A stretch of DNA of 64,000 nt from Ignavibacteriota bacterium (lineage in GTDB: Bacteria; Bacteroidota; Ignavibacteria; Palsa-1295): contig CAVZOL010000001.1 of NCBI GenBank assembly GCA_963776895.1, positions 89,321 through 153,320 of the forward strand. Direction: 5' to 3'. This document shows, piece after piece, positions 7,985 through 63,387 of the stretch. Position 1 is the stretch's first letter; each line of letters begins with the position of its first letter. The position numbers and the translations under genes are program-made. The notes under the pieces are model-generated. The model worked only from the letters and a program-made list of their open reading frames with translations, had not been told where the DNA came from and ran no database searches.

Positions 7985-8045
7985 GACGAAAGAAATCGTT
8001 GGAAGAATGGAACCCGAATGGGTGTCGTATATTTGATGTGAAATA

Positions 8046-10316: not shown

Positions 10317-10846
10317 CAACGATATTTCGCATCAGCTTCAGCAAGTGATTTGAGCGCGGTTTGCACACGAGCAAATGGTTCGAGGGGATCGAAGCTGAGG
10401 CTTCGGAGAATTTCCATAGCAATCGGAAGGTCTGGATTATTACCGATTTGAGGCTTTACTACCATTGGCTCATATTCACCGCCCTGACTTTCGAGCTTTT
10501 CTGAGTTGGTTGTCGCATCACCACGCTCAATCACACCGGAAGCTTGCCCAATCCACACCACAGGCTTGTCCAAGTTCCCACGAATCGCTAGCATAAAAGT
10601 TTCCTTTACAAGAATAATTGCGGGCTTGGTCTTGATTTCTCTTAGGAGTGGCCTACCGCATAACTCTACTCCGATGTGAGGTTGAAGCATTCCGCCATAA
10701 AGTTGGCGTTGAATCCCGGTAGGCTTAACACTGTGTGTACAGCGAAACTCTTGCGGAACGCCTGTTGAGTCAGTTACTAAAATAGCTCCTATAAAACCAT
10801 CGGTAGAGGTTTGCTCAAGCGTCAAAAAACCAATATTACATTCCAT
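10316..10846 (-). CDS. Hypothetical 176-aa protein, first gene of the SNF2-Mrr cassette
   Basis: Intact ORF MECNIGFLTLEQTSTDGFIGAILVTD...; I recognise no motif. Its stop overlaps the SNF2-Mrr start, which implies translational coupling. Confidence 0.6.
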   Translation of the reverse strand: MECNIGFLTLEQTSTDGFIGAILVTDSTGVPQEFRCTHSVKPTGIQRQLYGGMLQPHIGVELCGRPLLREIKTKPAIILVKETFMLAIRGNLDKPVVWIGQASGVIERGDATTNSEKLESQGGEYEPMVVKPQIGNNPDLPIAMEILRSLSFDPLEPFARVQTALKSLAEADAKYR

Positions 10847-25472: not shown

Positions 25473-25572
25473 AACCGAATGCGTAACCGTTCGGTTTCCT
25501 AATTTTTAGGAAAAAATAAAAGGCCGAAAAGTCGGCCTTAAATTATAAGTGAAATTAGGGGAAAAAATAGAG

Positions 25573-25803
25573 CTAATCCCGTTTGCTCGCATGCAAAACG
25601 GTGAGGCCAATCAACTCATCGCCCTCATAACGCATGATAATATCATCGTCGGTCAACTCGCTGTCGGTTGCGAAGCTGGGTTTCTTGAAATTGACATAAA
25701 GGACATCCGCTTCTTCGTCATAAGAAGTCCATAAATATCCAGCGGGCGCATGGAGAGCAGCCGGTAGAATCTTCAGATAGTCATTAACATTCACTATGGC
25801 CAT
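25573..25803 (-). CDS. DUF2283-family antitoxin-like protein
   Basis: YDEEADVLYVNFKKPS...DELIGLTVLHAS matches the DUF2283 pattern. Confidence 0.65.
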   Translation of the reverse strand: MAIVNVNDYLKILPAALHAPAGYLWTSYDEEADVLYVNFKKPSFATDSELTDDDIIMRYEGDELIGLTVLHASKRD

Positions 25804-26096
25804 AGTTGCTTTCGTTTTTCGAGTGATTTTCTACGTCGCGTAAGAAATGCCGTTATGATGAACCCATCAACGGCGAGTTCTTTGTACACGACCACGATGT
25901 CTTTACCAGTATCAATCTCTTTTACCGCAAGAAGTTCGTTTGCGTTCCCTTGGAGTATTCTATCAGGTGCTGCGATGGCGTCCAAAACATCTACTCTGCG
26001 GCCGGCGACCTCGGAGTGCTCCTCGGTGATGTGTGCCCATCGTTCGTCTGTCAGACGAACAGGTTTCCCAAATTTCGAGGTGATAATTTGAAGCAT
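25794..26096 (-). CDS. Small toxin-like protein (DUF4258/BrnT- or PBECR-type fold suspected), partner of DUF2283
   Basis: Start MLQIITSKFGKPVRLTDERWAHITEEHSE...GFIITAFLTRR. Overlaps the DUF2283 gene by 10 nt, and its ATG overlaps the stop of the upstream oxidoreductase (TAATG). Confidence 0.45.
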   Translation of the reverse strand: MLQIITSKFGKPVRLTDERWAHITEEHSEVAGRRVDVLDAIAAPDRILQGNANELLAVKEIDTGKDIVVVYKELAVDGFIITAFLTRRRKSLEKRKQLWP

Positions 26097-27955
26097 TACG
26101 CCATCACCAATTCCCGCATATCGATCGCTTTGGGTATGATCGCATCGAATTTCTGCATATCCCATGCGAAGGTAGGGCAGCGTTCGGCGCAGAGGCCGCA
26201 GTGAACGCAGAGGTCTTCGTCCTTTGCCATGATGCGTCCGGTTTGCTTCAATGGTTCCGAAACGAAGAGTGCTTGCGAGAGATTGAGCGCCGGCGCGGAG
26301 AGGCGGGAGCGAAGTTCCATCTCATCATCTGAATCGCGCGTGATCGTCAGGCATTGTACTGGACATACATCTATACAGGCGTCGCACTCGATACACTTCG
26401 GCGCGAAGAAGACGGTCTCCATGTCGCAATTCAGGCAGCGCTGAACTTCATTCGCAGTTTGCTCGGCGGTAAAGCCAAGCTCGACTTCTGTTGTGAGATT
26501 CTTGAAGCGTTCGACAAGATCGACATGCTTCATCTTCTGCCGCGTCTCGGGATCGTAATTATTATTATACGACCATTCCGAAAGTCCCATCTTGGCAGAG
26601 ACGAGATTCATCCCGCGCTTCATGCGCTCAGTGACGGGAATGCCGAAGCAGTAATTATTGATCGAAATTGCAGCTTGATGCCCGTGCTCGACAGCCCAAA
26701 TGATATTCTTCGGCCCCCACGCAGCATCGCCGCCGAAAAACACGCCGGGCAGCGTTGACATATACGTCGTTTCGTCAACTTTGGGCATATCCCACTTGCC
26801 GAATTCCATACCGAGATCTTTTTCGATCCATGGGAATGCATTATCCTGACCGATAGCGAGAATAACGTCATCACATGGAAGGATCACGGTGTCGATGGTG
26901 CGCGATTCCGTTGCGCCTTCGTTCCATTCGAGACGTTCGAACTCCATTCCGACGAGCTTGCCATTTTCCATCACGAACCGTTTCGGTGCGTGATTGATAA
27001 CGATCTCGATCCCTTCTTCCTCAGCATCTTCCAGTTCCCACGGCGATGCTTTGAAATACTTTCGCGGACGGCGAGCCATTACCTTAATATCTTTTCCGCC
27101 AAGTCTGCGGGAGGAGCGGCAGCAATCCATTGCGGTATTGCCAACGCCGATAATGAGCACTTTCTCGCCAATGGATTTGATATGCTCAAAGGCAATGGAG
27201 AACAGCCAGTCAATTCCGATGTGAATATTCGCAGCAGCTTCCTGGCGACCGGGAATCTGCAGATCCTTCCCACGCGGTGCGCCGGAACCAATAAAGACGG
27301 CATCGAAATTTTCTTCGAGCATTGCTCTCATGCTCTTGATGGGAGTATTGTATTTCACATCCACGCCCATATCTACGATCATCGCGATCTCTTCATCGAG
27401 CACACCGGCGGGAAGGCGGAAGGAGGGGATATTCGAGCGCATGAGTCCACCCGGTTTATCCATTGCTTCGAAAATGGTTACTTCATATCCGAGCGGCATG
27501 AGGTCGTTCGCAACGGTGAGCGATGCAGGCCCCGCGCCGATGCAGGCAATGCGCTTGCCATTCTTTGCGGTCGGAATTTTCGGGAGCAGCATCGAAATGT
27601 CCTCGTCGCGGAGATCGGATGCGACGCGCTTTAAGCGGCAGATAGCGACGGGCTTTCCATCGACGCGGTCGCGGCGGCAGGCCGGCTCGCACGGGCGGTC
27701 GCAGGTGCGCCCGAGAATGCCGGGAAACACGTTCGACTCGCGGTTCAACATGTACGACTCGGTGTACTTGCCTTGCGCGATAAGGCGAATGTACTCCGGT
27801 ACATTCGTATGCGCGGGGCACGCCCATTGGCAATCAACTACTTTATGAAAATAATCCGGATTTTGCTGGTCGGTTGGCTTCACTTTAAAATTTTGTTCGT
27901 TATTGTGAGAACGAAGCGGAAAACAGCAGGGGGAGCGGGGACGTTCGCAAACCAA
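26096..27955 (-). CDS. GltD-like NAD(P)H-dependent oxidoreductase (glutamate synthase small-chain family) with C-terminal 2x[4Fe-4S] ferredoxin domain
   Basis: CPAHTNVPEYIRLIAQGKY, Rossmann motifs IACIGAGPASL and VLIIGVGNTAMDC, and C-terminal CIECDACIDVCP / CVHCGLCAERCP. The exact start is uncertain. Confidence 0.8.
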   Translation of the reverse strand: MVCERPRSPCCFPLRSHNNEQNFKVKPTDQQNPDYFHKVVDCQWACPAHTNVPEYIRLIAQGKYTESYMLNRESNVFPGILGRTCDRPCEPACRRDRVDGKPVAICRLKRVASDLRDEDISMLLPKIPTAKNGKRIACIGAGPASLTVANDLMPLGYEVTIFEAMDKPGGLMRSNIPSFRLPAGVLDEEIAMIVDMGVDVKYNTPIKSMRAMLEENFDAVFIGSGAPRGKDLQIPGRQEAAANIHIGIDWLFSIAFEHIKSIGEKVLIIGVGNTAMDCCRSSRRLGGKDIKVMARRPRKYFKASPWELEDAEEEGIEIVINHAPKRFVMENGKLVGMEFERLEWNEGATESRTIDTVILPCDDVILAIGQDNAFPWIEKDLGMEFGKWDMPKVDETTYMSTLPGVFFGGDAAWGPKNIIWAVEHGHQAAISINNYCFGIPVTERMKRGMNLVSAKMGLSEWSYNNNYDPETRQKMKHVDLVERFKNLTTEVELGFTAEQTANEVQRCLNCDMETVFFAPKCIECDACIDVCPVQCLTITRDSDDEMELRSRLSAPALNLSQALFVSEPLKQTGRIMAKDEDLCVHCGLCAERCPTFAWDMQKFDAIIPKAIDMRELVMA

Positions 27956-27986
27956 TTTATATTCAGATGAGGCGAAAATCCCGACA

Positions 27987-30107
27987 CTATCTTTGTAGTA
28001 CGATCTTGCTTATCCGCTTCACGCTCCCACCCTGAAGTTCGAGCCGATATGCACCATTCGCAATACCTGTAAGATCAAGCTGAAACCGCTGCCCATTCGT
28101 GGTTATCGTTCGATGCCAGACGGTTGCGCCTGTTTCGGAAATAAGGCTTGCTTCGGTCACGCCAGAGAGATCGGGACAAGAGACGGTGATAATATTCGAT
28201 GATGGGTTGGGATAAACGGAGATTGAGTCGGATGGTTGATTTGTGCTTGCTACGCTTAACGAAGGTATCATCTCCGCAAGCGAGCGGCGCCAAACGCCGG
28301 AAGATGCCGTGCCAGCAAGTAGCTCATTTCCTTGTACCGCAAGAGAGACAACCATCGAATCGCCTAAACCCAAGTTCTCACGCGTCCAACTGGTACCGTA
28401 GTCGGTAGTGAGGAAAATTCCATCGCTGTCAGTTGCTACAAAAAGATTGTCCCCAACCGAGGCAAAAGTTTCGATTTCCCCTCGGGGGGGAACGGATGTA
28501 TCTATAGTGCGATGCCACGAGACAGAAGTGTCATCGGACATAAAAAGGGCACCTTTGTCAAGGTTTGTCCTGCCTAAGCGATTTGAAAATAATTTAGTTC
28601 CGGCTGACCCAATAGTATTAATTGCGAGTTGTTGAATAAATGGTATGCCTGAATCCGATTCATTCCATGTGATTCCATCGTTATTAGAAACAAAAATACC
28701 GATATTCGTTGAAGCGAAGATGCTGGAACCGAAATTCAAGAAATTATAAATATAAGCTTTAAGCGAAAGATTCCAAGATTCTCCTTGATTCAGTGACCAA
28801 TAGACATTATCTTCTCCGCCTGCGAGTAAATTATTCCCTGATCGAATCAGTGTATAGACGGAGTAGTCTGTCATCGGCTCGCCTATCACATCCCAATAAT
28901 TCCCAAGATCAGAGGAAACAAGCAAAGAGGAAAATGGAGACCAGTTGGATGCTCCTGCGAATAGATTTCCTCCGTCAAGCAGTAGAGAGGTAAAATTGGA
29001 TAAGAGGAAAGGATTATCCTTCATTTGCCAAGATACGCCGTTATCGACACTTACGAAGATTCCCTCATTCGTTGCAACTACCGTTGTATCATTGACGGAC
29101 GTAATACAATTCACAGATGTATTAAGAAGTCCTTGATTACATTGGGACCATGTTACTCCACTATCGGAAGATCGATAAATGCCATAGCCAGTGAACCCAG
29201 CAAGAAGTTCGGTGTCGACGGACGCAATGGTATTCACTTTCACTCCATTTGGAAGTCCATACGATGCAAGCTGCCATGATTGGGCAGTATCGATCGAACA
29301 ATAAATTGATCCATCGGATCCTATTGTAAAAATTTCATTTCCAAGCGTAGCGAAGATGCCACCAAAGTAGTAATTATTCTTTGGTTCTGGAAGTCCGTTG
29401 TTAGCGGATTCCCAGCTAAAACCTTCGTCAAATGACCGACGAATACCCAAATTCTCATCGTATGCAATAAGTACATTCCCGATGTTGGCTAATGCAGTAA
29501 TGCTCCAAGCAGTATCGGAAGGAGATATTCCTGTTACGGTCCATGTGGAACCGTCGTTCGTTGTTGTCGTAACCCACCTCCCTGCAGCATAGGTAGTGGA
29601 ATCGATAGTTATAAAACATCCGGGATTACTAAAATTAGTGAGATCGGTATCGGCCTTGATCCATTTAGTTCCATTCTCCGTTCCTAAAAAAAGATAACCC
29701 GCTGCGGGTACGAAAACCGCATCTCTACTGGCTCCTAATGAAGTAATGGAGAACTCAAGATCGGCTGGAAAACCAAGTGAAATATGAGTCCAAGTGGACC
29801 CACTATCAGTGGAACAAAATATTTTATACCACTCCGTTCCAGCAAACAAGTTTGAACCCTGAGACTGCAAGGCAAGAACATAAGGATTCTCTGGCAACTC
29901 CGATGTTCTGCGATTCCAGCTTGAACCCCCGTCTGTCGATTCGAAGACGCCTCCATAGGTACCAATGAATATTGCGTTGCCAATATGAGTAATACTATAA
30001 ACCGACGCCCCATACGGCCCATTTGTTTGCACCCACTGTGCTCGCGCCACGCTCGTGTGGAGCGCGGCGGAAAGCACGATCATCGAGAGGTAGAAGAGAC
30101 GTTTCAT
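27987..30107 (-). CDS. Secreted BNR/Asp-box multi-repeat (double beta-propeller, sortilin/GH74-like) protein with T9SS C-terminal sorting domain (BNR1)
   Basis: Signal peptide MKRLFYLSMIVLSAALHTSVARAQW. At least 12 SxDxGxxW-type boxes (STDGGSSW, STDSGSTW, SSDSGVTW, TTDYGTSW...). C-terminus VYPNPSSNIITV...GAYRLEL...IVLQR is Por_Secre_tail-like. Confidence 0.8.
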   Translation of the reverse strand: MKRLFYLSMIVLSAALHTSVARAQWVQTNGPYGASVYSITHIGNAIFIGTYGGVFESTDGGSSWNRRTSELPENPYVLALQSQGSNLFAGTEWYKIFCSTDSGSTWTHISLGFPADLEFSITSLGASRDAVFVPAAGYLFLGTENGTKWIKADTDLTNFSNPGCFITIDSTTYAAGRWVTTTTNDGSTWTVTGISPSDTAWSITALANIGNVLIAYDENLGIRRSFDEGFSWESANNGLPEPKNNYYFGGIFATLGNEIFTIGSDGSIYCSIDTAQSWQLASYGLPNGVKVNTIASVDTELLAGFTGYGIYRSSDSGVTWSQCNQGLLNTSVNCITSVNDTTVVATNEGIFVSVDNGVSWQMKDNPFLLSNFTSLLLDGGNLFAGASNWSPFSSLLVSSDLGNYWDVIGEPMTDYSVYTLIRSGNNLLAGGEDNVYWSLNQGESWNLSLKAYIYNFLNFGSSIFASTNIGIFVSNNDGITWNESDSGIPFIQQLAINTIGSAGTKLFSNRLGRTNLDKGALFMSDDTSVSWHRTIDTSVPPRGEIETFASVGDNLFVATDSDGIFLTTDYGTSWTRENLGLGDSMVVSLAVQGNELLAGTASSGVWRRSLAEMIPSLSVASTNQPSDSISVYPNPSSNIITVSCPDLSGVTEASLISETGATVWHRTITTNGQRFQLDLTGIANGAYRLELQGGSVKRISKIVLQR

Positions 30108-30129
30108 CCGAAACATTCTCAGCAGATTC

Positions 30130-31632
30130 CTAACGTTGCAGCACGATCGGTATCGTTTGCTGCATATTACCCGAACGAAGCGCCAGGCGATACGAGCCGT
30201 TGCTTATGCCAGAGAAATTGAGCTGCAGTTTGCCATCGGAGTTCAGTGTTTGCTTCCAAACCGTTACTCCGTTTTCCGAGATCAGGCTTGCATCGGTCGA
30301 GCCGGTAAAATCAGGACATACAATGTTGACATTGCCGGAAGCGGGATTCGGATATGCCGAAACATTACCCGAGATCACGTAGCCATCCTCGACGATCGCA
30401 GGTGGGCCGGGATCTTGAAACGCCGAATCAGAAACGAAAGAAACGTCAGTCAGGCTGTTGAGAAACGCTTCGAGATCTGTCATTTCTGAACTGGTCAGGC
30501 CGAGCGGTTTAATTCGGGGATCTTGATTCGTTACGATGTCGCCACGTCCGGCATTGCCACCCATATTATAATTTGCGATCACCTGCGACAAAGAAGCGAC
30601 AGTTCCGTCGGCTCCATACGGGGCATGGAGCGCAACGTTACGGAGCGAGGGAGTGCGGAATTTTCCAATGTCGCTCGAATCGCCGGTGACCGCTGCGCGT
30701 CCGGGATCGACACCCTCCCGGAGCGTATCGGCCACCGTATCGAACCCGTATCCACCATTTGGTACACCGGGTACCGTGGATTCAAAGGTTCCCGTCCGGT
30801 AATAATTATTATCGGTAAAGATATTAGCTGCCGCAAACGAGGCTTTGGAACCGAGATTATTATGGCACTCGGAGCAATTCGTTTTCGTGGTGTCGAAAAA
30901 GAGATTCATCCCGCGAATGGACGAGGAATCCATCGCGGCAGTGTATCCATTCACATATTGATCGTAAGGACTGTTGCCGCTGATAAGGCACCGCTCGAAC
31001 GTTGCAATAGCCATTGCGATGCGGTCGAGCGTGATCGTGGGATCGCCAAAGGCCTGCGTGAACATGGCGGTGTAAACCGGATTGCTTGCAAGGATGGGGA
31101 AGATCACGGTCGTATCTCCTTGCAAATCGCCTTTTTTCTGAACGGCAATTTCCACTTGATCTTCAAGTGTTTGAATGTGGCCGTCCCAGGTGAGCACGGT
31201 ATCGTAGCCGACATTCATCAGTCGCGGGACATCTCGCACGGGCTGCGACTGGACACCAAATGCCCCGCTATGGGAACCAATGCCCTGAGCATTACCGGAA
31301 GCGAAACTGACATAAACATCATGGCACGAGCTGCACGATGTTTGACCATCGCCACTGAGCGCCGTTTCATAAAAAAGCTGACGGCCCAGCACGAATTTTT
31401 CCTGCGTGATCGGATTATTTGCCGGAGTAGGCGGCGCAGGCCATCCTGGCGGAAGCACCAGCGGAGTGCTCAAGGTATGGGCAGGCAGCGAAAGCGGGGC
31501 TGGCTGCCGAAAGGCAACCAAGCTAACGACTGCAAGAACCGCAGCAGGAAGAAGTAAAAACCTTCCCGTACGGAGCGACCGCGCAAGAATGCGAGAAGAA
31601 GAAAACGACTGACCGACACTGACCTTAGACAT
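30130..31632 (-). CDS. Di-haem cytochrome c peroxidase/MauG-family protein with T9SS C-terminal sorting domain (CCP1)
   Basis: Two CXXCH motifs (CSSCH, CSECH). Family motifs [45 protein letters not shown]-terminus AYPNPASGNVNIV...GSYRLAL...IVLQR. Confidence 0.85.
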   Translation of the reverse strand: MSKVSVGQSFSSSRILARSLRTGRFLLLPAAVLAVVSLVAFRQPAPLSLPAHTLSTPLVLPPGWPAPPTPANNPITQEKFVLGRQLFYETALSGDGQTSCSSCHDVYVSFASGNAQGIGSHSGAFGVQSQPVRDVPRLMNVGYDTVLTWDGHIQTLEDQVEIAVQKKGDLQGDTTVIFPILASNPVYTAMFTQAFGDPTITLDRIAMAIATFERCLISGNSPYDQYVNGYTAAMDSSSIRGMNLFFDTTKTNCSECHNNLGSKASFAAANIFTDNNYYRTGTFESTVPGVPNGGYGFDTVADTLREGVDPGRAAVTGDSSDIGKFRTPSLRNVALHAPYGADGTVASLSQVIANYNMGGNAGRGDIVTNQDPRIKPLGLTSSEMTDLEAFLNSLTDVSFVSDSAFQDPGPPAIVEDGYVISGNVSAYPNPASGNVNIVCPDFTGSTDASLISENGVTVWKQTLNSDGKLQLNFSGISNGSYRLALRSGNMQQTIPIVLQR

Positions 31633-31732
31633 AAATTGCTCTCTTTCTAAAAAAGTTTTTGAAAACCTATGCTTATCCGAATACTTATGCTAATCCGAAA
31701 ATCTATGAAAACCTTTCTTGATCCGTTTACTC

Positions 31733-33880
31733 TCAATGTTGAATAACGATGTTACGTGCAACCTGGTTCTGCCCCTCGGCAACAAATTCGAGTTGATATG
31801 CCCCATTGGCAACACCGGTTAAATCCACTTTGAATGGCTGCCCGTTCGTGACAAGCGTTCGGCGCCAAACGACTTCACCCGTTTCAGAAATGAGGCTTGC
31901 TTCGGTCGCTCCATTGAGATCGGGGCAGGAAACAGTTAAAATACTCGATGCCGGGTCGGGATAAACAGAGATCACTTCCGATGGTTGATTTGTGCTTGCT
32001 ACGCTTAACGAAGGTATCATCTCCGCGAGCGGGCGGCGCCACACGCCGGAAGAGGCAGTGCCTGCAAGAAGTTCATTTCCTTGCACGGTAAGAGAGATAA
32101 CGTTTGTATCGCTTAATCCTAAATTTTCGCTTGCCCAGGTTGCACCGCTATCGCTGGTGAGAAAAATTCCGGCGCTATCGGTCGCAACGAATAATGTCGT
32201 TCCGTACGATGCAAAACACGTAACATATCCCTTCGGCGGAATGGAGGTATCTTCGGCAGGGTGCCACGTCATTCCGGCATCGTCAGAAAAGAATATGGAT
32301 CCTGTATAGTGAGGGTACGATCCGCTTGTGCCTACCCAAAATCGGGTTCCAGCTATCCCAACACATTGAACGGAAGGCTGGTACTTATAGGAAGTTCCAT
32401 TTTGCGTCAAAAACTCGTTCGATAAGGCCCAAGTATTTCCATTAGAATAGGAAGTATAGATGCCCACGCTTGTCGCAGCGATAAGTGTGGACTGTAGGCT
32501 CTCCATTCCAAGGACAACAATTTCCGTATCGGCGGAGACCTTTGGCTGGGTCCATTCCGTCCCTTCGTTTGTCGATTCGAAAAATCCAGCAGTGTAGTTA
32601 AAAGGATAGCCTCCCGCAATCAGATTAGGTCCGCTTCGAGTAAGGGCGTTAATGTCAAACCCATTGATCAACGTGTCTGCATTCCAGGTTTCTCCCCAGT
32701 CTGTCGATGAAAAAAGAGATGGGGAATTTTGCCCTCCCAGTGTGCCTACAAAAAGAGTGTTGCCATCGATCAAAAGGGATCGAATATTATAATTTGTCAT
32801 TCCATTTAGTTTGGACTGCCACGTAGCACCATTATCCACACTAAAGAATAGACCCGTATTCGCTCCGGCCATTATTGTGTCACCGGTGCTCGCAATAACA
32901 TTAACGCTGGTATTACTAAGTCCCTGACTGCATTGCGACCATGTCTGTCCGCTATCGAAAGAGCAAAACATGCCTAAGCTATACATGCCTGCGAAAATCA
33001 CGTTATTATTGAAAGCAAGCGAACTGATTTCGACGCCGTTTGACAATCCGGATTCAGAAATTTGCCATGTTGTTCCGCTGTCTGTACTTTTATAAATGAG
33101 ACCACCATTAGTACCGGCGAAGAGTTCAGAGCCGACTGAAGCTAAGCATTGAATAGAAGCGAATGACGAAACGGGCGGGCTTGAGGTAGTCCATGTTGCG
33201 CCAGAGTTTGTTGAGCGCAACACACCGGTGGCACCGTCATCGACAAAAAGTATATTGTTGATGTTGGTCATTGCAAGAATATCCCATGAGTTGTTGCCAT
33301 TCGATGTGGAGATTACATTCCAGGTCAAGCCATGATCGGTCGTTTGAGTAATCCAATTGCCAGTGAAGTACGTGGCGGAGTCGACGGTTAAGACTGCATG
33401 AGGATTTGAAAATTTCGTGAGATTAGTATCGAGAAGTGTCCATGTATTACCATCATTTGAGCTGATATAACTATCGGAACCATTAGGAATGAAAAGTGTG
33501 TGATCATCCGATCCTAATGCTTGAACACTAAACGAATGTGGCAATCCCGTCGAAACGGAACTCCATGTTGCTCCACTATCGGTTGATTTATAAACACCAT
33601 TCCCATACGTTCCAGCAAAGATATTGGAACCGCGAGTAGTAAGTGGTTCAAAGTAGGAACTTGCTGGTAATCCATTACTTTTTCTCTGCCAACTCGTACC
33701 CGAATCCGTCGATTCGAATACTCCACGACCCGTTCCAATGAAAATATTATTTCCAAATGGTGTAATACAATAAACCCACCCCCCATACGGCCCATTCGTT
33801 TGCACCCACTGCGCTGGCGCCGCGCTCGTGTGGAGCGCGGCGGAGCATAGGATCATCGAGAGGCAGAAAAAGCGTTTCAT
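31733..33880 (-). CDS. BNR/Asp-box double-propeller protein with T9SS sorting domain (BNR2, paralog of BNR1)
   Basis: MKRFFCLSMILCSAALHTSAAPAQW, many SxDxGxTW boxes, C-terminus VYPDPASSILTV...IVIQH. A 47-nt run (31980-32026) is identical to 28231-28277. Confidence 0.8.
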   Translation of the reverse strand: MKRFFCLSMILCSAALHTSAAPAQWVQTNGPYGGWVYCITPFGNNIFIGTGRGVFESTDSGTSWQRKSNGLPASSYFEPLTTRGSNIFAGTYGNGVYKSTDSGATWSSVSTGLPHSFSVQALGSDDHTLFIPNGSDSYISSNDGNTWTLLDTNLTKFSNPHAVLTVDSATYFTGNWITQTTDHGLTWNVISTSNGNNSWDILAMTNINNILFVDDGATGVLRSTNSGATWTTSSPPVSSFASIQCLASVGSELFAGTNGGLIYKSTDSGTTWQISESGLSNGVEISSLAFNNNVIFAGMYSLGMFCSFDSGQTWSQCSQGLSNTSVNVIASTGDTIMAGANTGLFFSVDNGATWQSKLNGMTNYNIRSLLIDGNTLFVGTLGGQNSPSLFSSTDWGETWNADTLINGFDINALTRSGPNLIAGGYPFNYTAGFFESTNEGTEWTQPKVSADTEIVVLGMESLQSTLIAATSVGIYTSYSNGNTWALSNEFLTQNGTSYKYQPSVQCVGIAGTRFWVGTSGSYPHYTGSIFFSDDAGMTWHPAEDTSIPPKGYVTCFASYGTTLFVATDSAGIFLTSDSGATWASENLGLSDTNVISLTVQGNELLAGTASSGVWRRPLAEMIPSLSVASTNQPSEVISVYPDPASSILTVSCPDLNGATEASLISETGEVVWRRTLVTNGQPFKVDLTGVANGAYQLEFVAEGQNQVARNIVIQH

Positions 33881-33891
33881 ACGAAAATTTC

Positions 33892-35316
33892 TTATCGCTG
33901 GAGCACGATCGGTATTGATTGTTGTATATTGCTCGAACGAAGTACAAGGCGATAGGAGCCATTGCTTATGCCGGAGAAATTAAGCTGCAGTTTGCCATCG
34001 GAGTTAAGCGATTGGTGCCAAATCGTTGCTCCGTTTTCGGAAACAAGCGTTGCATCGGCCGAGCCGCTGAAATCAGGGCATTCAATGTTGACGGTGCCGG
34101 AAGCGGGATTCGGATATGCCGAAAGATCACCGGAGACCACGTAACCATCTTCGACAATAGCAGGCGGTCCCGGATCCTGGAAGTTCGGATTATTGATAAA
34201 CGATGAATCTGTCAGGCTTTGCAGAAACGCAAGAAGGTCGGTTTCGTTTTGCGACGTCAAATGGAGGGGAGTGAGTCGAGGATCGACATTGGAACCTCGG
34301 GCAGCAGCGCCATTATTATAGTTCTCTATCACGTCTTCGAGAGAACCCACAGACCCATCTGCTCCGTAAGGGCCATAGATCCCAACATTGCGGAGTGTTG
34401 GAGTGCGGAATTTCCCAAAGTCAAGGGAATCCAAGGTAACATCTTCGCGTCCGGAATCGATTTTCCCATGTTGGTAATAGAGCAGCACGGAACCGGTAGC
34501 GTAGAAGTCATTATCCGAAAAAAGGTTACCGACAGCATTCGTGCTAATTCCATTCACGCCGCCATGACATTGGGAACAATGATTATTCGTATCGAAGAAC
34601 AAGGTCATTCCGCGAATGGCGGAAGCCGAGAGCGCGGACGTATTTCCATTTAGATACTGGTCGTAGTAACTATTACCGCTGACGAGGCAGCGCACAAAGG
34701 TTGCGATGGCCATGGTGATACGATCCACGTTGATCGTGGGATCCCCAAACGCATTAGTGAACATCGCCACATAAGCCGGGTTGCTCGAAAGCTTGGTAAA
34801 GACTTCATTCGTATCGGCTTGGAGATCGCCCACTCGGAGGAGTGCCATCTGAGCCTGTTCTTCCAGCGTGTGCGCATGCCCATCCCAAAAGAGCACGGTG
34901 TCGTATCCAACGTTGACGAGCCGGGGTGCATGACGTATCGTGCTGGAAACCCCGAACGCTCCCGGCATCCCCGGAATAGTGTCGGAAAAACTTAGCGCTT
35001 GCTGATGGCAGGTTCCACACGATGTTTTTCCGTCCCCGCTCAACGCCACTTCATAAAAAAGTTGACGGCCAAGCGTGAATTTTTCCCGCGTGATCGGATT
35101 ATCTGCCGGAGTGGGCGGCGCAGACCATCCCGACGGAAGCACCAGCGGATCGCTTAGTGTATGGGCCGGCAATGAAAGCACGGCTGGTTGTCGAAAGGCA
35201 ACCAAGCTAACTATCGCAAGTAATGCGACGGGTAGAAGTAAGAATGGCGCGCTGCGGCGAGAATGAAGCAATAGACGGGAAGATACACGAGAAAGACCGA
35301 CCGAAAAACTGGACAT
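33892..35316 (-). CDS. Di-haem cytochrome c peroxidase/MauG-family protein with T9SS sorting domain (CCP2, paralog of CCP1)
   Basis: CGTCH and CSQCH. Start set at MSSFSVGLSR by alignment with CCP1 (MSKVSVGQSF). C-terminus AYPNPASGTVNIE...IVLQR. Confidence 0.85.
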   Translation of the reverse strand: MSSFSVGLSRVSSRLLLHSRRSAPFLLLPVALLAIVSLVAFRQPAVLSLPAHTLSDPLVLPSGWSAPPTPADNPITREKFTLGRQLFYEVALSGDGKTSCGTCHQQALSFSDTIPGMPGAFGVSSTIRHAPRLVNVGYDTVLFWDGHAHTLEEQAQMALLRVGDLQADTNEVFTKLSSNPAYVAMFTNAFGDPTINVDRITMAIATFVRCLVSGNSYYDQYLNGNTSALSASAIRGMTLFFDTNNHCSQCHGGVNGISTNAVGNLFSDNDFYATGSVLLYYQHGKIDSGREDVTLDSLDFGKFRTPTLRNVGIYGPYGADGSVGSLEDVIENYNNGAAARGSNVDPRLTPLHLTSQNETDLLAFLQSLTDSSFINNPNFQDPGPPAIVEDGYVVSGDLSAYPNPASGTVNIECPDFSGSADATLVSENGATIWHQSLNSDGKLQLNFSGISNGSYRLVLRSSNIQQSIPIVLQR

Positions 35317-35420
35317 AATACGCTCCTGGTAAAAAATATGAAGAAAGTAAATCCTCTCAGTAGTTAAAACGCACAGGGTCGCTTGGGTTACAAAAAAATA
35401 TAATGAATAATTCAACATTC

Positions 35421-35485
35421 TTTTCAGAGTTTTCATGAACTCTGAAAATCTCATCCAATAATTTATCCAGATTATCTATCCAGAT
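35421..35485. promoter_or_regulatory. Operator-like repeats in the divergent CCP2 / lipoprotein intergenic region
   Basis: Perfect 11-bp inverted repeat TTTTCAGAGTT-6 nt-AACTCTGAAAA (35421-35448), plus a direct repeat TATCCAGAT x2 with 13-nt period (35464-35485). Confidence 0.4.
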
Positions 35486-35552
35486 TTCAGATAAGAATTT
35501 TCTCATCATATTCTCATTGTATTCTTATCTTTTCTGCCGTATGTTTGTGGTG

Positions 35553-36272
35553 ATGCGCTCTCTGTCACTTCCTTCGGGAATTTTTGGAATCATCAAAACC
35601 TGCCCCGCGTTACCGAATAACTATTTCATAAAGCACACGTTAAATTACAAACTCCATTTCAGTTATCTCTGCTTCGTTGCGGTACTATTTTCTGCTTGCA
35701 GCAAGAGCACCAGCCCACCAAATGTTACATCCACCGCTGTACCTGTTTTTGACTCCACCTCGTTCCCGAATAACGAGAATTTTGAGGTGAATGGACTGCC
35801 CTCTTTAGATGGCTGGGTTTTTCATCCATCTATCCCAGGTGACACGATCACGTTTTACGATGTCAGTGAAGGGGATTATGTTCCTCCCGGCGATACTGCC
35901 TCCTGGTCCATATCGTTGCGTAAAAGCGATGTGCCACCGATCACGAATAACGTTACCAAGAGTTTTATTCATTGCTCTAGTGGCATTTATTCGCTTACAG
36001 TATGGCTGAGAATGAAGAAAGTTCTCGATTCCGCGCAGGGATATAACCCCGTGGGGTGGGTTGGGATCGTAAAGCACAGTGGAGGCGTATTAGATACGAC
36101 CAGTGTCTCCGCCGGCGATAGCACAGGTTGGAACCCCGTTACGGTGCTTGATACGCTTTCTCTTCTGCCAACCGATACGGTTGCGCTGATGATCGCGTCG
36201 GGTATGTGCGACAGTAGTTGTCATGGTAACCCCTATTGGTACGACGAGATCACTTTTAAAAAGCTCCCTTAA
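35553..36272 (+). CDS. Lipoprotein with CBM/galactose-binding-like jelly-roll domain (paralog 1)
   Basis: Lipobox AVLFSAC. C-terminus ...HGNPYWYDEITFKKLP is shared with the next gene. The start codon is uncertain (35517 or 35553). Confidence 0.55.
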   Translation: MRSLSLPSGIFGIIKTCPALPNNYFIKHTLNYKLHFSYLCFVAVLFSACSKSTSPPNVTSTAVPVFDSTSFPNNENFEVNGLPSLDGWVFHPSIPGDTITFYDVSEGDYVPPGDTASWSISLRKSDVPPITNNVTKSFIHCSSGIYSLTVWLRMKKVLDSAQGYNPVGWVGIVKHSGGVLDTTSVSAGDSTGWNPVTVLDTLSLLPTDTVALMIASGMCDSSCHGNPYWYDEITFKKLP

Positions 36273-36297
36273 TATTATTCAGCAAAGAATAGAGACT

Positions 36298-36870
36298 ATG
36301 AATAAATTACTATTTGCTATCGTTTGCATTGGTAGCCTTGGGTTATTTTCTTGCAAGAGCACCACCACTTCAGCACCAACCTCACCTACCCGTTTTCCGC
36401 TGATAAATACGAATTTCGATTCGGGCGGAACACATGGTTGGAATGGCTGGACCTTTCGCCATACGTTCGATACCACCGATTTTGAGCAGGATGCCCCTCC
36501 TGGTGGTGGAACATGGGGGTTCAAGCTTCACTCTGTCGATTTACCTACTCAATCCAATAACATTATTCAAGGCTTCACAAATCTGTCGTCCGGCGTGTAC
36601 GAGTTCACGCTCTGGTCTCATACCAAGTATGTGTTTCCTGACAGCATTTTTCACCCGGCGTGGATGTCAATCATAAAAGAAAGTGGAGGTGTGACGACTA
36701 CTGTAACGGATTCTCTCACCGATAGTCTTGACTGGTTTCCTCAGACCATGGTGGACACGTTAACGTTGCTTCCTACTGACTCTGTTACGCTTGAAGTTTC
36801 CAGCGGATTAGCGATCATACATGGGAACCCCACCACAGTCGATGATTTTACCTTTGCGAAACTTCCGTAA
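36298..36870 (+). CDS. Lipoprotein with CBM/galactose-binding-like domain (paralog 2)
   Basis: MNKLLFAIVCIGSLGLFSC lipobox. Shares motifs with the upstream gene: GxYxxTxW, LLPTDxVxL and ...HGNPTTVDDFTFAKLP. Confidence 0.6.
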   Translation: MNKLLFAIVCIGSLGLFSCKSTTTSAPTSPTRFPLINTNFDSGGTHGWNGWTFRHTFDTTDFEQDAPPGGGTWGFKLHSVDLPTQSNNIIQGFTNLSSGVYEFTLWSHTKYVFPDSIFHPAWMSIIKESGGVTTTVTDSLTDSLDWFPQTMVDTLTLLPTDSVTLEVSSGLAIIHGNPTTVDDFTFAKLP

Positions 36871-36897
36871 AGGCAAATGGAGAAGTTGATGGAGGAA

Positions 36898-38148
36898 TTA
36901 TTCCTTCACGAATCGCTTCACGAACGAACTTCCATCCGAAAGTTGGAACGAAAGAACATAGCTGCCCGGTGCAAACTTCGCTAACGCCAGCTTTGTGTTT
37001 TGTCCGACGTTGTTAGCTGCATAGAGAACGGCCCCACGTTCGTCGGTTATCTCAATTCTGGCAATGTAATTGCCGGTGGAAGAATAATCTATCGAGATAT
37101 AGTCCTGTGCCGGATTCGGATAGATCGAACAGGTAGTTGCTGCGGGCGATTCACCAACTCGGGAGAGTGGGGAGTATGTTTGAACTGGTTCTGAGATCGT
37201 GATATGTCCAGAGGTGGGGCCAATATCATCTGTTGCAACGATGCCATAATAATTGGGGCCAACTGTATAAGGATATACTGCTGTCAAGGTACTATCAATG
37301 GTAACGAAATAGGCATACGTGCCTTTGGGATAATCCGGCGTTACGCAAAAGCGGCCATTGCTTTGATCGAGATCGCCAAGGCCGGCGACGTACTCGAAAT
37401 CTTCGATATAATACCCCAGCGGATATTGCGTGGATACCGGAGGGCCATACTGAGAAGCGTTTAGGACCGTTCCATTGGGCAAGGTTGTGCGCGTTGTTAT
37501 GGAACGTTTTTGATAGCTCGACTTCATTCTGCGAATGCCGCCGGAGCCATCGGTATTGGAATAACCATACGCTCCGTAGATGGGAAACCCATCGAAGGCA
37601 TATCCAATGATCGGGGAATGATGAAGGGAATCTTTATCATCGTAGATGCAAACAGGATTCAGATGATGATGGTACTCTCCGTTCGGCGCGGGATGCCCGA
37701 GACAGGAATCGAAACTCGAACCCTCCACAACGATCGCATTCTGGTCCCAGACGCCGGCATTTTGGTACGAATTGGCATCTTTGGCGTTAAACATGCTGAC
37801 ACCATTCGACCAAATGCCGATATGGCCAAGTGGAGTAGCCGTCGGGGTGCCGGTATTCGCGATTGGGAACCTGGTGATCTTAAAAAGGAAATTTTGATTC
37901 ACCGGTGTATTCGGATCGCCGGGCCACGGGCCAATATCATACGAGGGAATGCCTGTGCACGTGAGATACACATTGCTATCCGAATACTTCACCGATTGCA
38001 CATCGGTGGGATAACTGCCGTAGCCCGTCGCGCCGGTGGTGTTAACGACCCAGCTCACAATGCTGGGCGAAGTGGGTTGCGCCATAACCGGAATGGCAGA
38101 AAGAATGATCGAGCACAGAAGGATCAACAAGAAGAAGCGATTTTGCAT
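36898..38148 (-). CDS. YHYH-domain protein with T9SS C-terminal sorting domain
   Basis: GHPAPNGEYHHHLNP plus IIGYAFDGFPIYG (YHYH family). Signal peptide present. C-terminus [12 protein letters not shown]...GSYVLSF...FVKE. Confidence 0.75.
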   Translation of the reverse strand: MQNRFFLLILLCSIILSAIPVMAQPTSPSIVSWVVNTTGATGYGSYPTDVQSVKYSDSNVYLTCTGIPSYDIGPWPGDPNTPVNQNFLFKITRFPIANTGTPTATPLGHIGIWSNGVSMFNAKDANSYQNAGVWDQNAIVVEGSSFDSCLGHPAPNGEYHHHLNPVCIYDDKDSLHHSPIIGYAFDGFPIYGAYGYSNTDGSGGIRRMKSSYQKRSITTRTTLPNGTVLNASQYGPPVSTQYPLGYYIEDFEYVAGLGDLDQSNGRFCVTPDYPKGTYAYFVTIDSTLTAVYPYTVGPNYYGIVATDDIGPTSGHITISEPVQTYSPLSRVGESPAATTCSIYPNPAQDYISIDYSSTGNYIARIEITDERGAVLYAANNVGQNTKLALAKFAPGSYVLSFQLSDGSSFVKRFVKE

Positions 38149-59978: not shown

Positions 59979-59983
59979 TTCTC

Positions 59984-63059: not shown

Positions 63060-63147
63060 TCCAATCCCTCGACACAAATATACGACATTATTTGGGACTC
63101 TGCGTAGAGTTTGCTCATCCTGCTTTCCTAAAACTGACTTTAAAGGC

Positions 63148-63387
63148 ATGGACATACTCAAAGTGATTGGCAAAAACGTTCGTTTCTTGCGCGAACAGCA
63201 GGGTTATTCGCAGGAAGAACTTGCTGAAAAATCTGGCATTGATCGATCTTACGTAGGCCACGTAGAACGCGGCGAACGCAATTTGAGTGTAGGTAATCTT
63301 TGTCTTATTTCAGCTGCGCTCAAAGTACATCCAAGCACGCTTTTTATTGAGGACGTATTCCGCTGGGAAGGCAAAATTTCGAAATAG
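63148..63387 (+). CDS. XRE-family HTH transcriptional regulator
   Basis: MDILKVIGKNVRFLREQQGYSQEELAEKSGIDRSYVGHVERGERNLSVGNLCLISAAL. Divergent from CCP3. Confidence 0.85.
   Translation: MDILKVIGKNVRFLREQQGYSQEELAEKSGIDRSYVGHVERGERNLSVGNLCLISAALKVHPSTLFIEDVFRWEGKISK

Follow-up and report, generated by a model that had tools for sequence, protein, structure and literature searches.

The pairing of a di-haem enzyme gene with a propeller gene directly downstream of it is a conserved module of the Kapaibacteriaceae, and it probably marks an undescribed putative enzyme–partner system. In the stretch of Ignavibacteriota DNA analysed here (64,000 nt, referred to as the window), this pair occurs twice in tandem on the minus strand, in the order CCP2, BNR2, CCP1, BNR1. 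The preferred explanation, a tentative one with a probability of roughly 0.38, is that the propeller is the substrate of the haem enzyme, which modifies it oxidatively. No description of the CCP-propeller pairing was found in the searched literature, in agreement with an earlier sequence-only reading, which knew of no function for it. The genes and the elements between them are as follows.

33892–35316 (likely extent; the ORF runs to 35454, 520 aa), minus strand: CCP2, di-haem enzyme of the MauG/MbnH type that carries a type-A T9SS C-terminal domain
31733–33880, minus strand: BNR2, 715 aa, two seven-bladed Asp-box propellers and a T9SS C-terminal domain
31633–31732, minus strand: AT-rich spacer of 100 nt between unit 2 and unit 1
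30130–31632, minus strand: CCP1, 500 aa, MauG/MbnH-type di-haem enzyme, T9SS C-terminal domain at 30133–30375
27987–30116 (likely start 30107), minus strand: BNR1, 709 aa from 30116, double seven-bladed propeller, C-terminal domain at 27990–28229
28231–28277 and 31980–32026: 47-nt run identical between the units

The duplicated unit, its order and strand and its stop-to-stop period of 3746 nt (31733 − 27987) were reproduced from the ORF coordinates. The CCP2 start at 35316 corresponds to Met47 of the longer ORF and agrees with the starts of CCP1 and the homologues. The gap between CCP2 and BNR2 is 11 nt, while that between CCP1 and BNR1 is 13 nt to the first ATG (30116) or 22 nt to the MKRLF start (30107). 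BNR2 and P0122 align with the MKRLF start, for which the 22 nt given originally holds. The signal peptide of BNR1 ends at ..VARA/QW. In the spacer 31633–31732, no terminator-like site was found, and two to three direct repeats of TATGCTwATCCGAA (31652–31731) are a possible operator or internal promoter.

Judged by its synonymous divergence, the tandem duplication is old rather than recent. BNR1 and BNR2 are 47% identical and CCP1 and CCP2 63%, and the proportion of synonymous differences between the units is about 0.62–0.67 overall, which is saturated. It drops to 0.25–0.30 only in BNR codons 1–40 and ~586–625 and in CCP codons 41–80 and 441–480. Since low synonymous divergence is confined to the gene ends, the shared ends are a product of gene conversion and not a sign of youth. 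The 47-nt run, confirmed as exact and maximal, lies inside one such tract, which spans the last blade and linker of both propellers. Thus, the sharing of signal-peptide and tail sequences noticed earlier stands, with homogenisation of the ends of an old duplication as its cause.

The key residues of the haem enzymes are located as follows.

35005–35019, minus strand: CCP2 haem motif CGTCH, c-type haem site
34564–34578, minus strand: CCP2 haem motif CSQCH, c-type haem site
34318–34320, minus strand: CCP2 axial-Tyr equivalent of CCP1 Tyr355
31321–31335, minus strand: CCP1 haem motif CSSCH, c-type haem site
31186–31188, minus strand: CCP1 inter-haem Trp149
30862–30876, minus strand: CCP1 haem motif CSECH, c-type haem site
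30568–30570, minus strand: CCP1 Tyr355

Both enzymes match PF03150 CCP_MauG (E 1e-41 to 3e-43), and all 24 aligned clade members have both CXXCH motifs, Trp149 and Tyr355. The Tyr355 column corresponds to the MauG axial ligand Tyr294, whereas canonical bacterial peroxidases have a Met one residue past ..AVAV. Among solved structures MbnH (6e1c, E 5.6e-63) comes closest, and MbnH is also the top NCBIfam model, at 250–258 bits and under the family cut-off of 362.85. These features place CCP1 and CCP2, by sequence, with the MauG/MbnH type and not with the canonical peroxidases, sharpening the initial assignment to a peroxidase/MauG family that includes oxidisers of partner proteins. Tyr-ligated MauG, MbnH and BthA form a bis-Fe(IV) state with H2O2 as oxidant (PMC6405878, PMC11892367, PMC11951088). 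The main CCP clade has a specific 20–30-residue loop, TFE..GGYGFD, which CCP2 lacks, and the predicted CCP structure is poor (pLDDT 56.5).

All four proteins had been claimed to carry T9SS tails, and PF18962 Por_Secre_tail matches bear this out at 31.6 bits for CCP1, 30.1 for CCP2 and 31.4 for BNR1 (cut-off 27), with BNR2 marginal at 26.9; three of the C-termini read IVLQR and one IVIQH. The C-terminal domains of the CCPs and propellers are 34–48% identical to each other, compared with 19–32% to other nearby C-terminal domains. The CCP N-terminus is atypical: its n-region is long and conserved, the hydrophobic core spans 17 residues, a VAFR is conserved, and there is no clear AXA cleavage site. 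Because cleavage is itself a prediction, the secretion of the CCPs is likewise only predicted.

The propellers match Sortilin-Vps10, PSII_BNR and BNR domains, and their structure is confidently predicted as two seven-bladed propellers followed by a secretion tail. They belong to a subclade at least 38% identical internally and no more than 31–32% identical to the remaining family, and the residues specific to it concentrate in blade 4.

33401–33430, minus strand: BNR2 subclade signature DTNLTKFSNP
33353–33355 and 33284–33286, minus strand: Trp residues that accompany the BNR2 signature
29622–29651, minus strand: BNR1 subclade-specific blade-4 patch DTDLTNFSNP
29574–29576, minus strand: BNR1 Trp181, blade-4 patch
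29505–29507, minus strand: BNR1 Trp204, blade-4 patch

Trp181 is present in 13/13 subclade members, with Gly at the same position in 62/75 outgroup sequences; Trp204 (12/13 members) sits in an insertion missing from 96% of the outgroup. A conserved His, Met or Cys cluster and an MbnP-like WxW motif are both absent from the propeller subclade, and the blade-4 Trp patch is regarded as a candidate target only. The second propeller is highly variable (mean pairwise identity 0.22–0.42). Within the propeller proteins, conservation is highest in the N-terminal strand and in the last blade with its linker, although the last blade and the GVWRR..LAEM motif are common to the whole large BNR family.

The pairing is conserved beyond the source genome. 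A CCP gene lies immediately upstream of 10/10 subclade propeller genes whose neighbourhood was read (two in the window and one each in L001, L002, L003, L005, L011, L017, L018 and L102), with gaps of −4 to 22 nt and ATGA start/stop overlaps of 4 nt in two lineages. The adjacency is retained in differing contexts, the flanking genes having turned over completely in L002, L003 and L018. Many of the loci are syntenic close relatives, arranged as DUF4149-methyltransferase-LipB-LipA-CCP-BNR-GltD. Contrary to the earlier proposal, the pairing is not fixed: roughly a third of the CCP genes in the clade lack a downstream propeller (L003b, L006, L007, L008, L100, the P0033 locus and L101), and therefore the enzyme needs no such partner in cis. 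Between the CCP and propeller trees the correlation is only weak (r = 0.38, Mantel p ~0.01) and mosaicism is strong; with alleles shuffled in this way among genomes, there is no sign of strict pair-specific co-evolution.

Among more distant relatives, MbnP is encoded directly upstream in 29/80 metagenome relatives and 5/5 Bacteroidota genome relatives, assigned by TIGR04052 at 275–281 bits in the three tested; therefore, the surrounding family consists of dedicated enzyme–partner pairs. The Kapaibacteriaceae loci lack MbnP. In MbnH–MbnP, a di-haem MauG-like enzyme converts Trp174 of MbnP to kynurenine (PMC11951088). That system and the present one have in common the pair of c-type haems, the inter-haem Trp, a Tyr in the place of the axial ligand and the adjoining partner gene. 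Here, by contrast, the partner is a double propeller of 700 aa whose gene lies downstream, not upstream, of the enzyme gene, and the CCP carries a T9SS C-terminal domain and the TFE..GGYGFD loop.

Two further kinds of known system come close. MauG, which acts on preMADH in tryptophan tryptophylquinone biosynthesis, has the same Tyr-His six-coordinate haem type and inter-haem Trp and the same concept of remote Trp oxidation in a partner protein. However, the CCPs score only 148–174 bits (cut-off 443.85), mau genes are absent, and a small Cys-rich light subunit is missing from the CCP-BNR pair, although the second module described below does have a Cys-rich protein, X660. In MADH, the heavy subunit too is a seven-bladed propeller. 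Methanotrophs offer a precedent: SACCP (MCA2590) and CorB are di-haem CCP/MauG-like proteins whose genes are co-transcribed with those of the surface proteins MopE and CorA, in which a Trp is turned into kynurenine, and SACCP and MopE are both located at the cell surface (PMC3912023). Those pairs belong to another phylum, use an export route other than T9SS and have a different partner fold, and the ligand set of their copper site (two His and kynurenine) is not conserved here.

In the preferred mechanism, the pair is an operon module specific to the Kapaibacteriaceae, and both proteins, bearing N-terminal export signals and type-A T9SS C-terminal domains, would cross the inner membrane, and the CCP would acquire its two c-type haems in the periplasm. 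With H2O2, its Tyr-His six-coordinate haem could enter a bis-Fe(IV)-type state, as in MauG, MbnH and BthA, and oxidise at least one propeller residue by long-range electron or hole transfer. The best candidate target would be the blade-4 patch (DTNLTxFSxP, Trp181, Trp204), whose loops are placed by inference on the usual binding face of propellers. Modification may occur before or after T9SS delivery of both proteins to the cell surface. In favour of the propeller as substrate were counted the enzyme type, linkage, MbnP outgroups, blade-4 residues, related C-terminal domains, a second module and the methanotroph precedent; against it, the incomplete pairing, weak co-evolution, missing partner-type motif, variable propeller 2 and atypical CCP N-terminus.

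The second, distinct CCP-propeller module is found elsewhere in the window.

58707–63173, minus strand: whole second module (CCP3, X660 and BNR4)
61866–63173, minus strand: CCP3, MbnH-like di-haem lipoprotein without a C-terminal domain
59984–61966, minus strand: X660, Cys-rich secreted protein with a weak secretion tail
58707–59978, minus strand: BNR4, single propeller with a C-terminal domain
63025–63387, plus strand: divergent XRE-type HTH gene at the module

This combination of a lipoprotein CCP and a propeller is also conserved in L020, L103 and L105. CCP3 has neither a secretion tail nor an acidic surface-export motif after its lipid-modified Cys. Its probable location is the periplasm, whereas its partners are exported. 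A tailless enzyme beside tailed partners (weakly so in X660) would accord with an enzyme that acts on periplasmic cargo.

This second module speaks against a less probable alternative, in which the pair is a two-component extracellular oxidative system. Here the propeller would be a scaffold or specificity subunit, binding or positioning a polymer or other compound, and the surface-anchored di-haem enzyme would oxidise it via peroxide or O2. The tails would probably place both proteins outside the cell, the variable second propeller would suit varied ligands, alleles interchangeable between genomes are expected without a co-evolved interface, and the source samples are, by their record names, soils, peat and wood. 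The propellers resemble GH74 xyloglucanases, tandem seven-bladed Asp-box propellers that give the best global structural matches (TM 0.58–0.63) and profile matches (E 2.6e-30). However, the position of the first GH74 catalytic Asp (YARTD*IGG) is taken by FIGT-Tyr54 in BNR1 and by FIGT-Gly in BNR2, the cleft-forming regions have no conserved acidic pair, no GH74 chain appeared in the single-sequence search, and the BNR proteins are shorter (~585 aa for 14 blades). Hydrazine synthase does combine, in one complex, a CCP/MauG-like di-haem gamma subunit with a cofactor-free beta-propeller beta subunit (PMC12607021). The CCPs match its NCBIfam gamma-subunit model only very distantly (E 4e-6 to 4e-8, 26–33 bits versus a cut-off of 625), and that enzyme is intracellular, with other chemistry, a three-Cys-bound active-site haem and a bis-His second haem. 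It is located in the anammoxosome. RoxA, which belongs to the CCP superfamily and acts outside the cell as a di-haem rubber oxygenase, is a precedent for an exported CCP-fold enzyme attacking an external substrate (PMC6311187); in the domain search neither CCP1 nor CCP2, both much smaller proteins, matched the RoxA-like domain PF21419. The nearest relatives remain protein-modifying MbnH enzymes adjoining MbnP.

An ordinary peroxide-detoxifying cytochrome c peroxidase, at the surface or in the periplasm and next to the propeller merely through inherited synteny, is improbable. T9SS-tailed BNR cargo is very common (four such proteins in the window), and the syntenic close relatives and propeller-less CCPs accord with it, as does the finding that BthA still reduces H2O2 after mutation of its Tyr ligand (PMC6405878). 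It is countered by the invariant Tyr in place of Met, by adjacency that outlives flank turnover and includes overlapping genes, by adjacent propellers forming their own subclade with a CCP upstream of each one examined, and by the independent second module. Least probable is a PorZ-like secretion or attachment helper, a display scaffold for the haem enzyme, or a surface electron-transfer unit: PorZ shares two propellers and a C-terminal domain (Foldseek 5m11, E 1.6e-21), the C-terminal domains are of related subtype and the conserved N-terminal strand and last blade with linker could be docking surfaces, but the TM-score is only 0.37, no PorZ family match occurs in NCBIfam or Pfam, paralogues are many per genome, the last-blade motifs are not specific to CCP partners, propeller-less CCPs retain their C-terminal domain, and simple electron shuttling does not go well with a Tyr-His haem.

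The pair is flanked by the following genes.

26096–27955, minus strand: GltD-like Fe-S flavoenzyme (Fer4_20, Pyr_redox_2, 2x[4Fe-4S] domain)
35517–36272, plus strand: LipA, lipoprotein gene divergent from CCP2
36223–36870, plus strand: LipB, lipoprotein gene divergent from CCP2

The GltD-like gene does follow BNR1 on the same strand, as noticed earlier, at 31 nt past its stop if a TTG start is used; homologues favour a start about 25 codons later. It is 91–97% identical at the amino acid level among related genomes. Because other genes intervene between it and the CCP-BNR pair in several genomes, it is a syntenic neighbour only and not a demonstrated module member. LipA and LipB, which matched no known family, are paralogous (36% identical) and adjoin the CCP only in L001, L005, L010, L011 and L102.

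The locus holds two tandem minus-strand units, unit 1 (CCP1 and BNR1) and unit 2 (CCP2 and BNR2), each pairing a di-haem enzyme gene (CCP) with a double-propeller gene (BNR). The four open reading frames that the sequence-only reading had placed here were found at the same positions:

33892-35454, minus strand, CCP2, open reading frame of 520 aa
31733-33880, minus strand, BNR2, 715 aa
30130-31632, minus strand, CCP1, 500 aa
27987-30116, minus strand, BNR1, 709 aa

Alignment to CCP1 and homologues indicates that CCP2 likely starts at 35316. The 3746-nt period claimed for the units, the 11-nt gap between CCP2 and BNR2 and the 31 nt to the GltD-like frame were all reproduced, as were the IVLQR/IVIQH protein ends and the 47-nt identical run. 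The 22 nt reported between CCP1 and BNR1 holds for one choice of the BNR1 ATG, and another choice gives 13 nt. The Pfam domains are CCP_MauG plus Por_Secre_tail in both CCPs, and Sortilin-Vps10/PSII_BNR/BNR plus Por_Secre_tail in both BNR proteins.

The class of the haem enzymes is indicated by several features. PF03150 (CCP_MauG) matches CCP1 and CCP2 with E-values of 1e-41 to 3e-43, and the haem motifs C100xxCH and C253xxCH, together with Trp149 and Tyr355, do not vary among 24 clade sequences. Tyr355 corresponds to the axial ligand Tyr294 of MauG in a gap-free alignment (chain 3l4m, residues 258-296), while Geobacter CcpA has AVAV and then Met at this position. BthA and MbnH likewise carry Tyr at the axial position, which is occupied by Met in canonical enzymes (PMC6405878). 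The invariant Trp149, in a WDGH motif, aligns with the Trp of FWDGR in bacterial cytochrome c peroxidase and of LTW in MbnH. As in the MauG subgroup, Trp149 is thus assigned by alignment as the inter-haem tryptophan, and a distal Tyr on the six-coordinate haem is predicted. Among solved structures MbnH (6e1c, E 5.6e-63) comes closest, followed by canonical peroxidases and MauG, and the top NCBIfam model is the MbnH model TIGR04039 (CCP1 249.5, CCP2 257.8 and CCP3, of a second module in the window, 299.7 bits). CCP1 and CCP2 are therefore classified, from their sequences, as MauG-type enzymes, based on the haem motifs, Trp149, the Tyr355 match and MbnH as nearest structure and model. Enzymes of this group use H2O2 as oxidant and form a bis-Fe(IV) state (PMC11892367).

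Membership of narrower families was rejected. Scores stay below the cut-offs of the MbnH equivalog (362.85 bits, CCP3 included) and of the MauG equivalog TIGR03791 (147.9-173.9 against 443.85 bits), and hydrazine synthase gamma (NF052341) gives only 25.9-32.6 bits against 625. A canonical bacterial cytochrome c peroxidase would need a His-Met haem, but Tyr sits at the ligand position. No methylamine dehydrogenase genes lie near the CCP/BNR pairs.

The CCP clade is narrow and comprises some 34 sequences with 50-80% identity, of which one carries the name Candidatus Kapabacteria. Its genome matches are metagenome-assembled genomes of Kapaibacterium or 'Ignavibacteriota'; NCBI taxonomy assigns Kapaibacterium to the family Kapaibacteriaceae of Bacteroidota. 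A library clustered at 50% identity contains one full-length sequence and four fragments of the clade, and beyond these none of the top 150 matches extends over the C-terminal domain. For CCP1, AF2 modelling on 24 aligned sequences reached a mean pLDDT of 56.5, with some confidence only in the C-terminal sandwich and the N-terminal helix; the model was set aside as too poor for Foldseek. A 'Rosetta stone' fusion of CCP and propeller occurred in none of ten long proteins checked among the top representative-library matches; these have tandem CCP domains, with a CN_hydrolase domain in six. Some distant relatives of about 1100-1200 aa in the representative library (P0318-P0325) combine two tandem CCP_MauG domains with carbon-nitrogen hydrolase and RoxA-like cytochrome c domains.

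The wider family provides a context for the pairing. MbnH converts Trp of MbnP to kynurenine (PMC11951088). For CCP relatives at 31-43% identity, an MbnP-profile match lies directly upstream in 29 of 80 metagenome loci and in all five Bacteroidota genome loci, L012-L016; three tested examples score 275-281 bits on TIGR04052 (cut-off 140). By HMM search, MbnP (TIGR04052, WxW) is absent from the window and from all Kapaibacteriaceae loci. The CCP clade is therefore nested in a family of dedicated enzyme-partner pairs, with another neighbour in place of MbnP.

That neighbour is the propeller. A clade CCP stands directly upstream of every gene of the propeller subclade whose neighbourhood was read, namely both units of the window and the loci L001, L002/L009, L003/L004, L005, L011, L017, L018/L019 and L102 of other genomes or metagenomes, and three further pairs share a contig to judge by its length alone. 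The two genes lie between -4 and 22 nt apart and overlap by ATGA in L002 and L018. Since L002, L003 and L018 are flanked by different genes, the pairing amounts to more than shared synteny. The propeller that follows the CCP in L102 (7525-9660) is broken into two frames of 381 and 329 aa, either by a frameshift error in the assembly (contig names ending in 'np1212', possibly nanopore) or as a pseudogene.

The converse does not hold, as clade CCPs without a downstream propeller occur in L006, L007, L008, L100, L101, the locus of homologue P0033 and the second CCP of L003. In L006 the CCP directly precedes the GltD-like gene, and in L101 it is followed by another CCP. The propeller-less CCPs are scattered over the clade in a neighbour-joining tree, which suggests that the propeller was lost repeatedly. 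No propeller gene adjoins any of the 80 distant metagenome relatives; the scan, made with the CCP alignment, returned relatives at no more than 43% identity, which were taken as outgroup and not as clade.

A second module is present in the same window:

61866-63173, minus strand, CCP3, lipoprotein MbnH-like enzyme without a secretion tail
59984-61966, minus strand, X660, Cys-rich secreted protein of 660 aa, of no known family
58707-59978, minus strand, BNR4, single BNR propeller with T9SS tail
63025-63387, plus strand, XRE-type HTH regulator gene, divergent from the module

CCP3 is 41-42% identical to CCP1 and CCP2 and keeps the Tyr motif. L103 and L105 have the same arrangement; in L020, 9 nt separate CCP and propeller, and L104 has three tandem propellers of this type with no CCP. 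MauG-type enzymes are thus connected to secreted propellers by two separate operon types, and this favours a functional link. As a lipoprotein without a tail, CCP3 is compatible with action on periplasmic cargo.

The propellers themselves have a recognisable architecture. The AF2 model of BNR1 (pLDDT 90.3) has 14 blades of four strands each and, after them, a beta-sandwich C-terminal domain, and Foldseek aligns it with GH74 xyloglucanases of the same two-propeller arrangement at TM 0.58-0.63. Model and matches agree on two tandem seven-bladed propellers forming a cleft, as required of GH74, and a family profile search also finds GH74 chains, whereas a single-sequence search returns only Ycf48 and no GH74. 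The GH74 motif YARTDIGG (6p2o) aligns with the position after FAGT of a blade. In the first blade, the equivalent of the catalytic Asp is Tyr54 after FIGT in BNR1 and Gly after FIGT in BNR2; placement of the second Asp in the alignment is unreliable. GH74 membership was rejected, because the fold fits but the first catalytic Asp and single-sequence similarity are missing. Assignment to the F510_1955 family glycosylhydrolases (NF045728) failed as well, as the scores of 103.4 and 148.4 bits, spread over 4-5 repeated stretches, stay below the cut-off of 175.

BNR1 and BNR2 belong to a very large family of T9SS-tailed BNR proteins of about 700 aa, for which no described function was found. Within it they form a distinct subclade, with 38-85% identity inside and at most 31-32% to the rest. 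The N-terminal strand and last blade are the most conserved parts and the second propeller the most variable, and subclade-specific residues concentrate near blade 4. These include the motif DTNLTxFSxP (residues 156-165), Trp181 (13/13 subclade members; Gly in 62 of 75 outgroup sequences) and Trp204 (12/13 members), which sits in an insertion missing from 96% of the outgroup. From the strand order of the model, we infer that all three lie in B-C and D-A loops. In Asp-box propellers, the face of these loops is opposite the Asp-boxes and is usually used for binding. A third double-propeller protein with a T9SS tail (40122-42266, minus strand, 714 aa) is 31% identical to BNR1 and has no adjoining CCP; a 44% identical relative occupies the equivalent position in L005.

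Predicted export signals were examined at both ends of the CCP and BNR proteins. With PF18962 (Por_Secre_tail, cut-off 27 bits), CCP1 scores 31.6, CCP2 30.1, BNR1 31.4 and BNR2 a marginal 26.9, and with TIGR04183 CCP1 and BNR1 pass the cut-off while CCP2 and BNR2 fall under it. The AF2 models show a C-terminal beta-sandwich (pLDDT 80-96 in BNR1, 73-87 in CCP1). A type-A T9SS C-terminal domain is thus recognised in the CCP and BNR proteins, and export by this system is predicted. The C-terminal domains of CCPs and propellers are 34-48% identical, unusually alike compared with others nearby, and have the motif CPD[FL]xGxx[DE]A[ST]L[IV]SExG in common. The signal peptide of BNR1 and BNR2 is canonical, with VARA before the cleavage site and QW after it. 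The CCP N-terminus (31513-31632, residues 1-40 of CCP1, and homologues) is long and conserved without a clear AXA site; a basic n-region of about 22 residues precedes LLLPxAxLAxVSxVAFR, and residues 12-40 of CCP1 are modelled, with low confidence, as a single long helix. This segment may serve as a signal anchor that is not cleaved, and T9SS export would then be hard to reconcile with it.

Taken together, the preferred reading, at a probability of a little under two in five, is that a MauG/MbnH-like protein oxidase, the CCP, has the propeller as its partner, with both as T9SS cargo. The CCP would oxidise the propeller, with the tryptophan patch of blade 4 as the candidate site. Comparable cases are MbnH/MbnP, MauG/preMADH and, at the cell surface, SACCP/MopE (PMC11951088, PMC6405878, PMC3912023). 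The foremost alternative, considered unlikely, has the two proteins acting together as an extracellular oxidative system, with the propeller binding a substrate from outside. In hydrazine synthase, a cofactor-free propeller does serve a CCP-like subunit (PMC12607021). A plain detoxifying peroxidase, adjacent to the propeller by chance, is improbable, as it fits poorly with the Tyr ligand, with an adjacency kept across different contexts and with the second module. A PorZ-like helper or scaffold is rated slightly lower still. PorZ appears in Foldseek beside hybrid two-component sensor domains, at lower TM than GH74, and orthology was rejected at TM 0.37 with no family match. The rest of the probability belongs to some explanation not thought of.

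Protein oxidation by a CCP acting on its own propeller would add to a small group, as long-range protein oxidation by MauG-type enzymes is rare. To our knowledge, the enzyme-partner pairs established or suggested so far are few, namely MauG/preMADH, MbnH/MbnP and probably SACCP/MopE. The CCP-BNR pair is a variation on this MauG/MbnH theme, restricted to a little-studied lineage and with a predicted function. It offers a new partner for experiment, from an MbnH-like enzyme lineage in which MbnP was swapped for a beta-propeller and a T9SS tail was gained. More specifically, the MauG-type enzyme might install a Trp-derived modification (kynurenine, quinone or cross-link) in the secreted double beta-propeller, with the CCP as the first c-type haem protein exported as T9SS cargo; this is doubtful, and if true it would define a new class of Bacteroidota cell-surface protein with a protein-derived cofactor. 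The CCP would also be a test case for passage of a folded, haem-loaded protein through the T9SS. In full-text searches no account of a T9SS-exported CCP/MauG-type enzyme was found, and for pairing of a MauG-like enzyme with a propeller only hydrazine synthase came up. An enzymatic partner for one subclade gives an entry to the large T9SS-tailed BNR family of Bacteroidota-related lineages. Even if synteny alone is involved, 'cytochrome c peroxidase' annotations here still denote MauG-type enzymes and not detoxifying peroxidases.

The history of the locus combines duplication and recombination. CCP1 and CCP2 are 63% identical, BNR1 and BNR2 47%, and synonymous differences are saturated (pS 0.6-0.97) across most of both genes, so the duplication of the unit is old. 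A CCP2-type gene with the identical loop deletion in another genome, L010, agrees with this age. The pS value dips to 0.25-0.30 in only four places, two in the BNR paralogues (signal-peptide end; last blade with linker) and two in the CCPs (residues 41-80; C-terminal domain); the similar gene ends are therefore read as gene-conversion tracts. Tandem arrays also occur as BNR(543)-CCP-BNR(721)-CCP in L003 (8206-15283) and as CCP-CCP in L101 (3035-8194), the latter with a T9SS-tailed BNR protein 1.7 kb upstream, so such duplication is not peculiar to the window.

The correlation between CCP and propeller distances is weak (r = 0.38, Mantel p about 0.01), and tight co-evolution was rejected on this value and on clear mosaicism. 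Between L011 and contig 90083, propellers are 55% and CCPs 89% identical, while unit 1 and L017 show 85% and 69%, respectively. L005 joins a CCP1-like enzyme (CCP at 8001-9500; 81-82%) to a BNR2-like propeller (65%). Compared with L017 (CCP 3-1469), CCP1 has a dS of 1.89, BNR1 one of 0.49 and the GltD-like gene one of 0.60; the CCP allele was therefore replaced by recombination. Alleles of both genes are swapped in this way, probably via the conserved gene ends. Purifying selection acts on the propellers (dN/dS 0.18-0.24), though less strictly than on the CCPs (0.12-0.13) or on the GltD-like gene (0.04). Positive or diversifying selection on the propeller found no support, with no stretch above 0.4.

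Terminator and promoter scans of the locus gave counts no higher than shuffled sequence and no site within the spacers, TAnnTTTG, the -7 motif of Bacteroidota, is as frequent as expected by chance, and Rfam has no RNA family in 25500-37000. The spacer before CCP1 (31652-31731) holds two to three direct repeats of TATGCTwATCCGAA, and that before CCP2 (35458-35483) two of ATwATyTATCCAG. Both include TATCC (GGATA on the coding strand) and could be putative regulator binding sites.

The GltD-like Fe-S flavoenzyme gene downstream of BNR1 (26096-27955, minus strand) has a C-terminal 2x[4Fe-4S] domain, with PRK12771 as best model, below cut-off. It is a very slowly evolving core gene, 91-97% identical at the amino acid level over related genomes, where the adjoining CCPs reach only 56-80%. 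It was rejected as a module member and treated as a syntenic neighbour: Uma2 or other genes intervene in L001, L005 and L017, and it is missing near L003 and L018. Divergent from CCP2 lie the paralogous lipoprotein genes LipA and LipB (35517-36870, plus strand; 251 and 215 aa, 36% identical), with lipoboxes LFSAC and LFSC and C-termini of the form F.KLP. They were rejected as an MbnP partner, as neither Pfam nor NCBIfam gave a match, and they adjoin a CCP only in closer relatives (L001, L005, L010, L011, L102). Between this pair and a methyltransferase gene, 36898-38148 (minus strand) encodes a protein that combines a YHYH domain (PF14240, E 1.5e-52) and a T9SS C-terminal domain and is missing from the syntenic L001 region. 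Further away, a 757-aa frame (8046-10319, minus strand) joins a SNF2-family helicase to a C-terminal Mrr_cat restriction-endonuclease domain and may be a defence or restriction-like gene.
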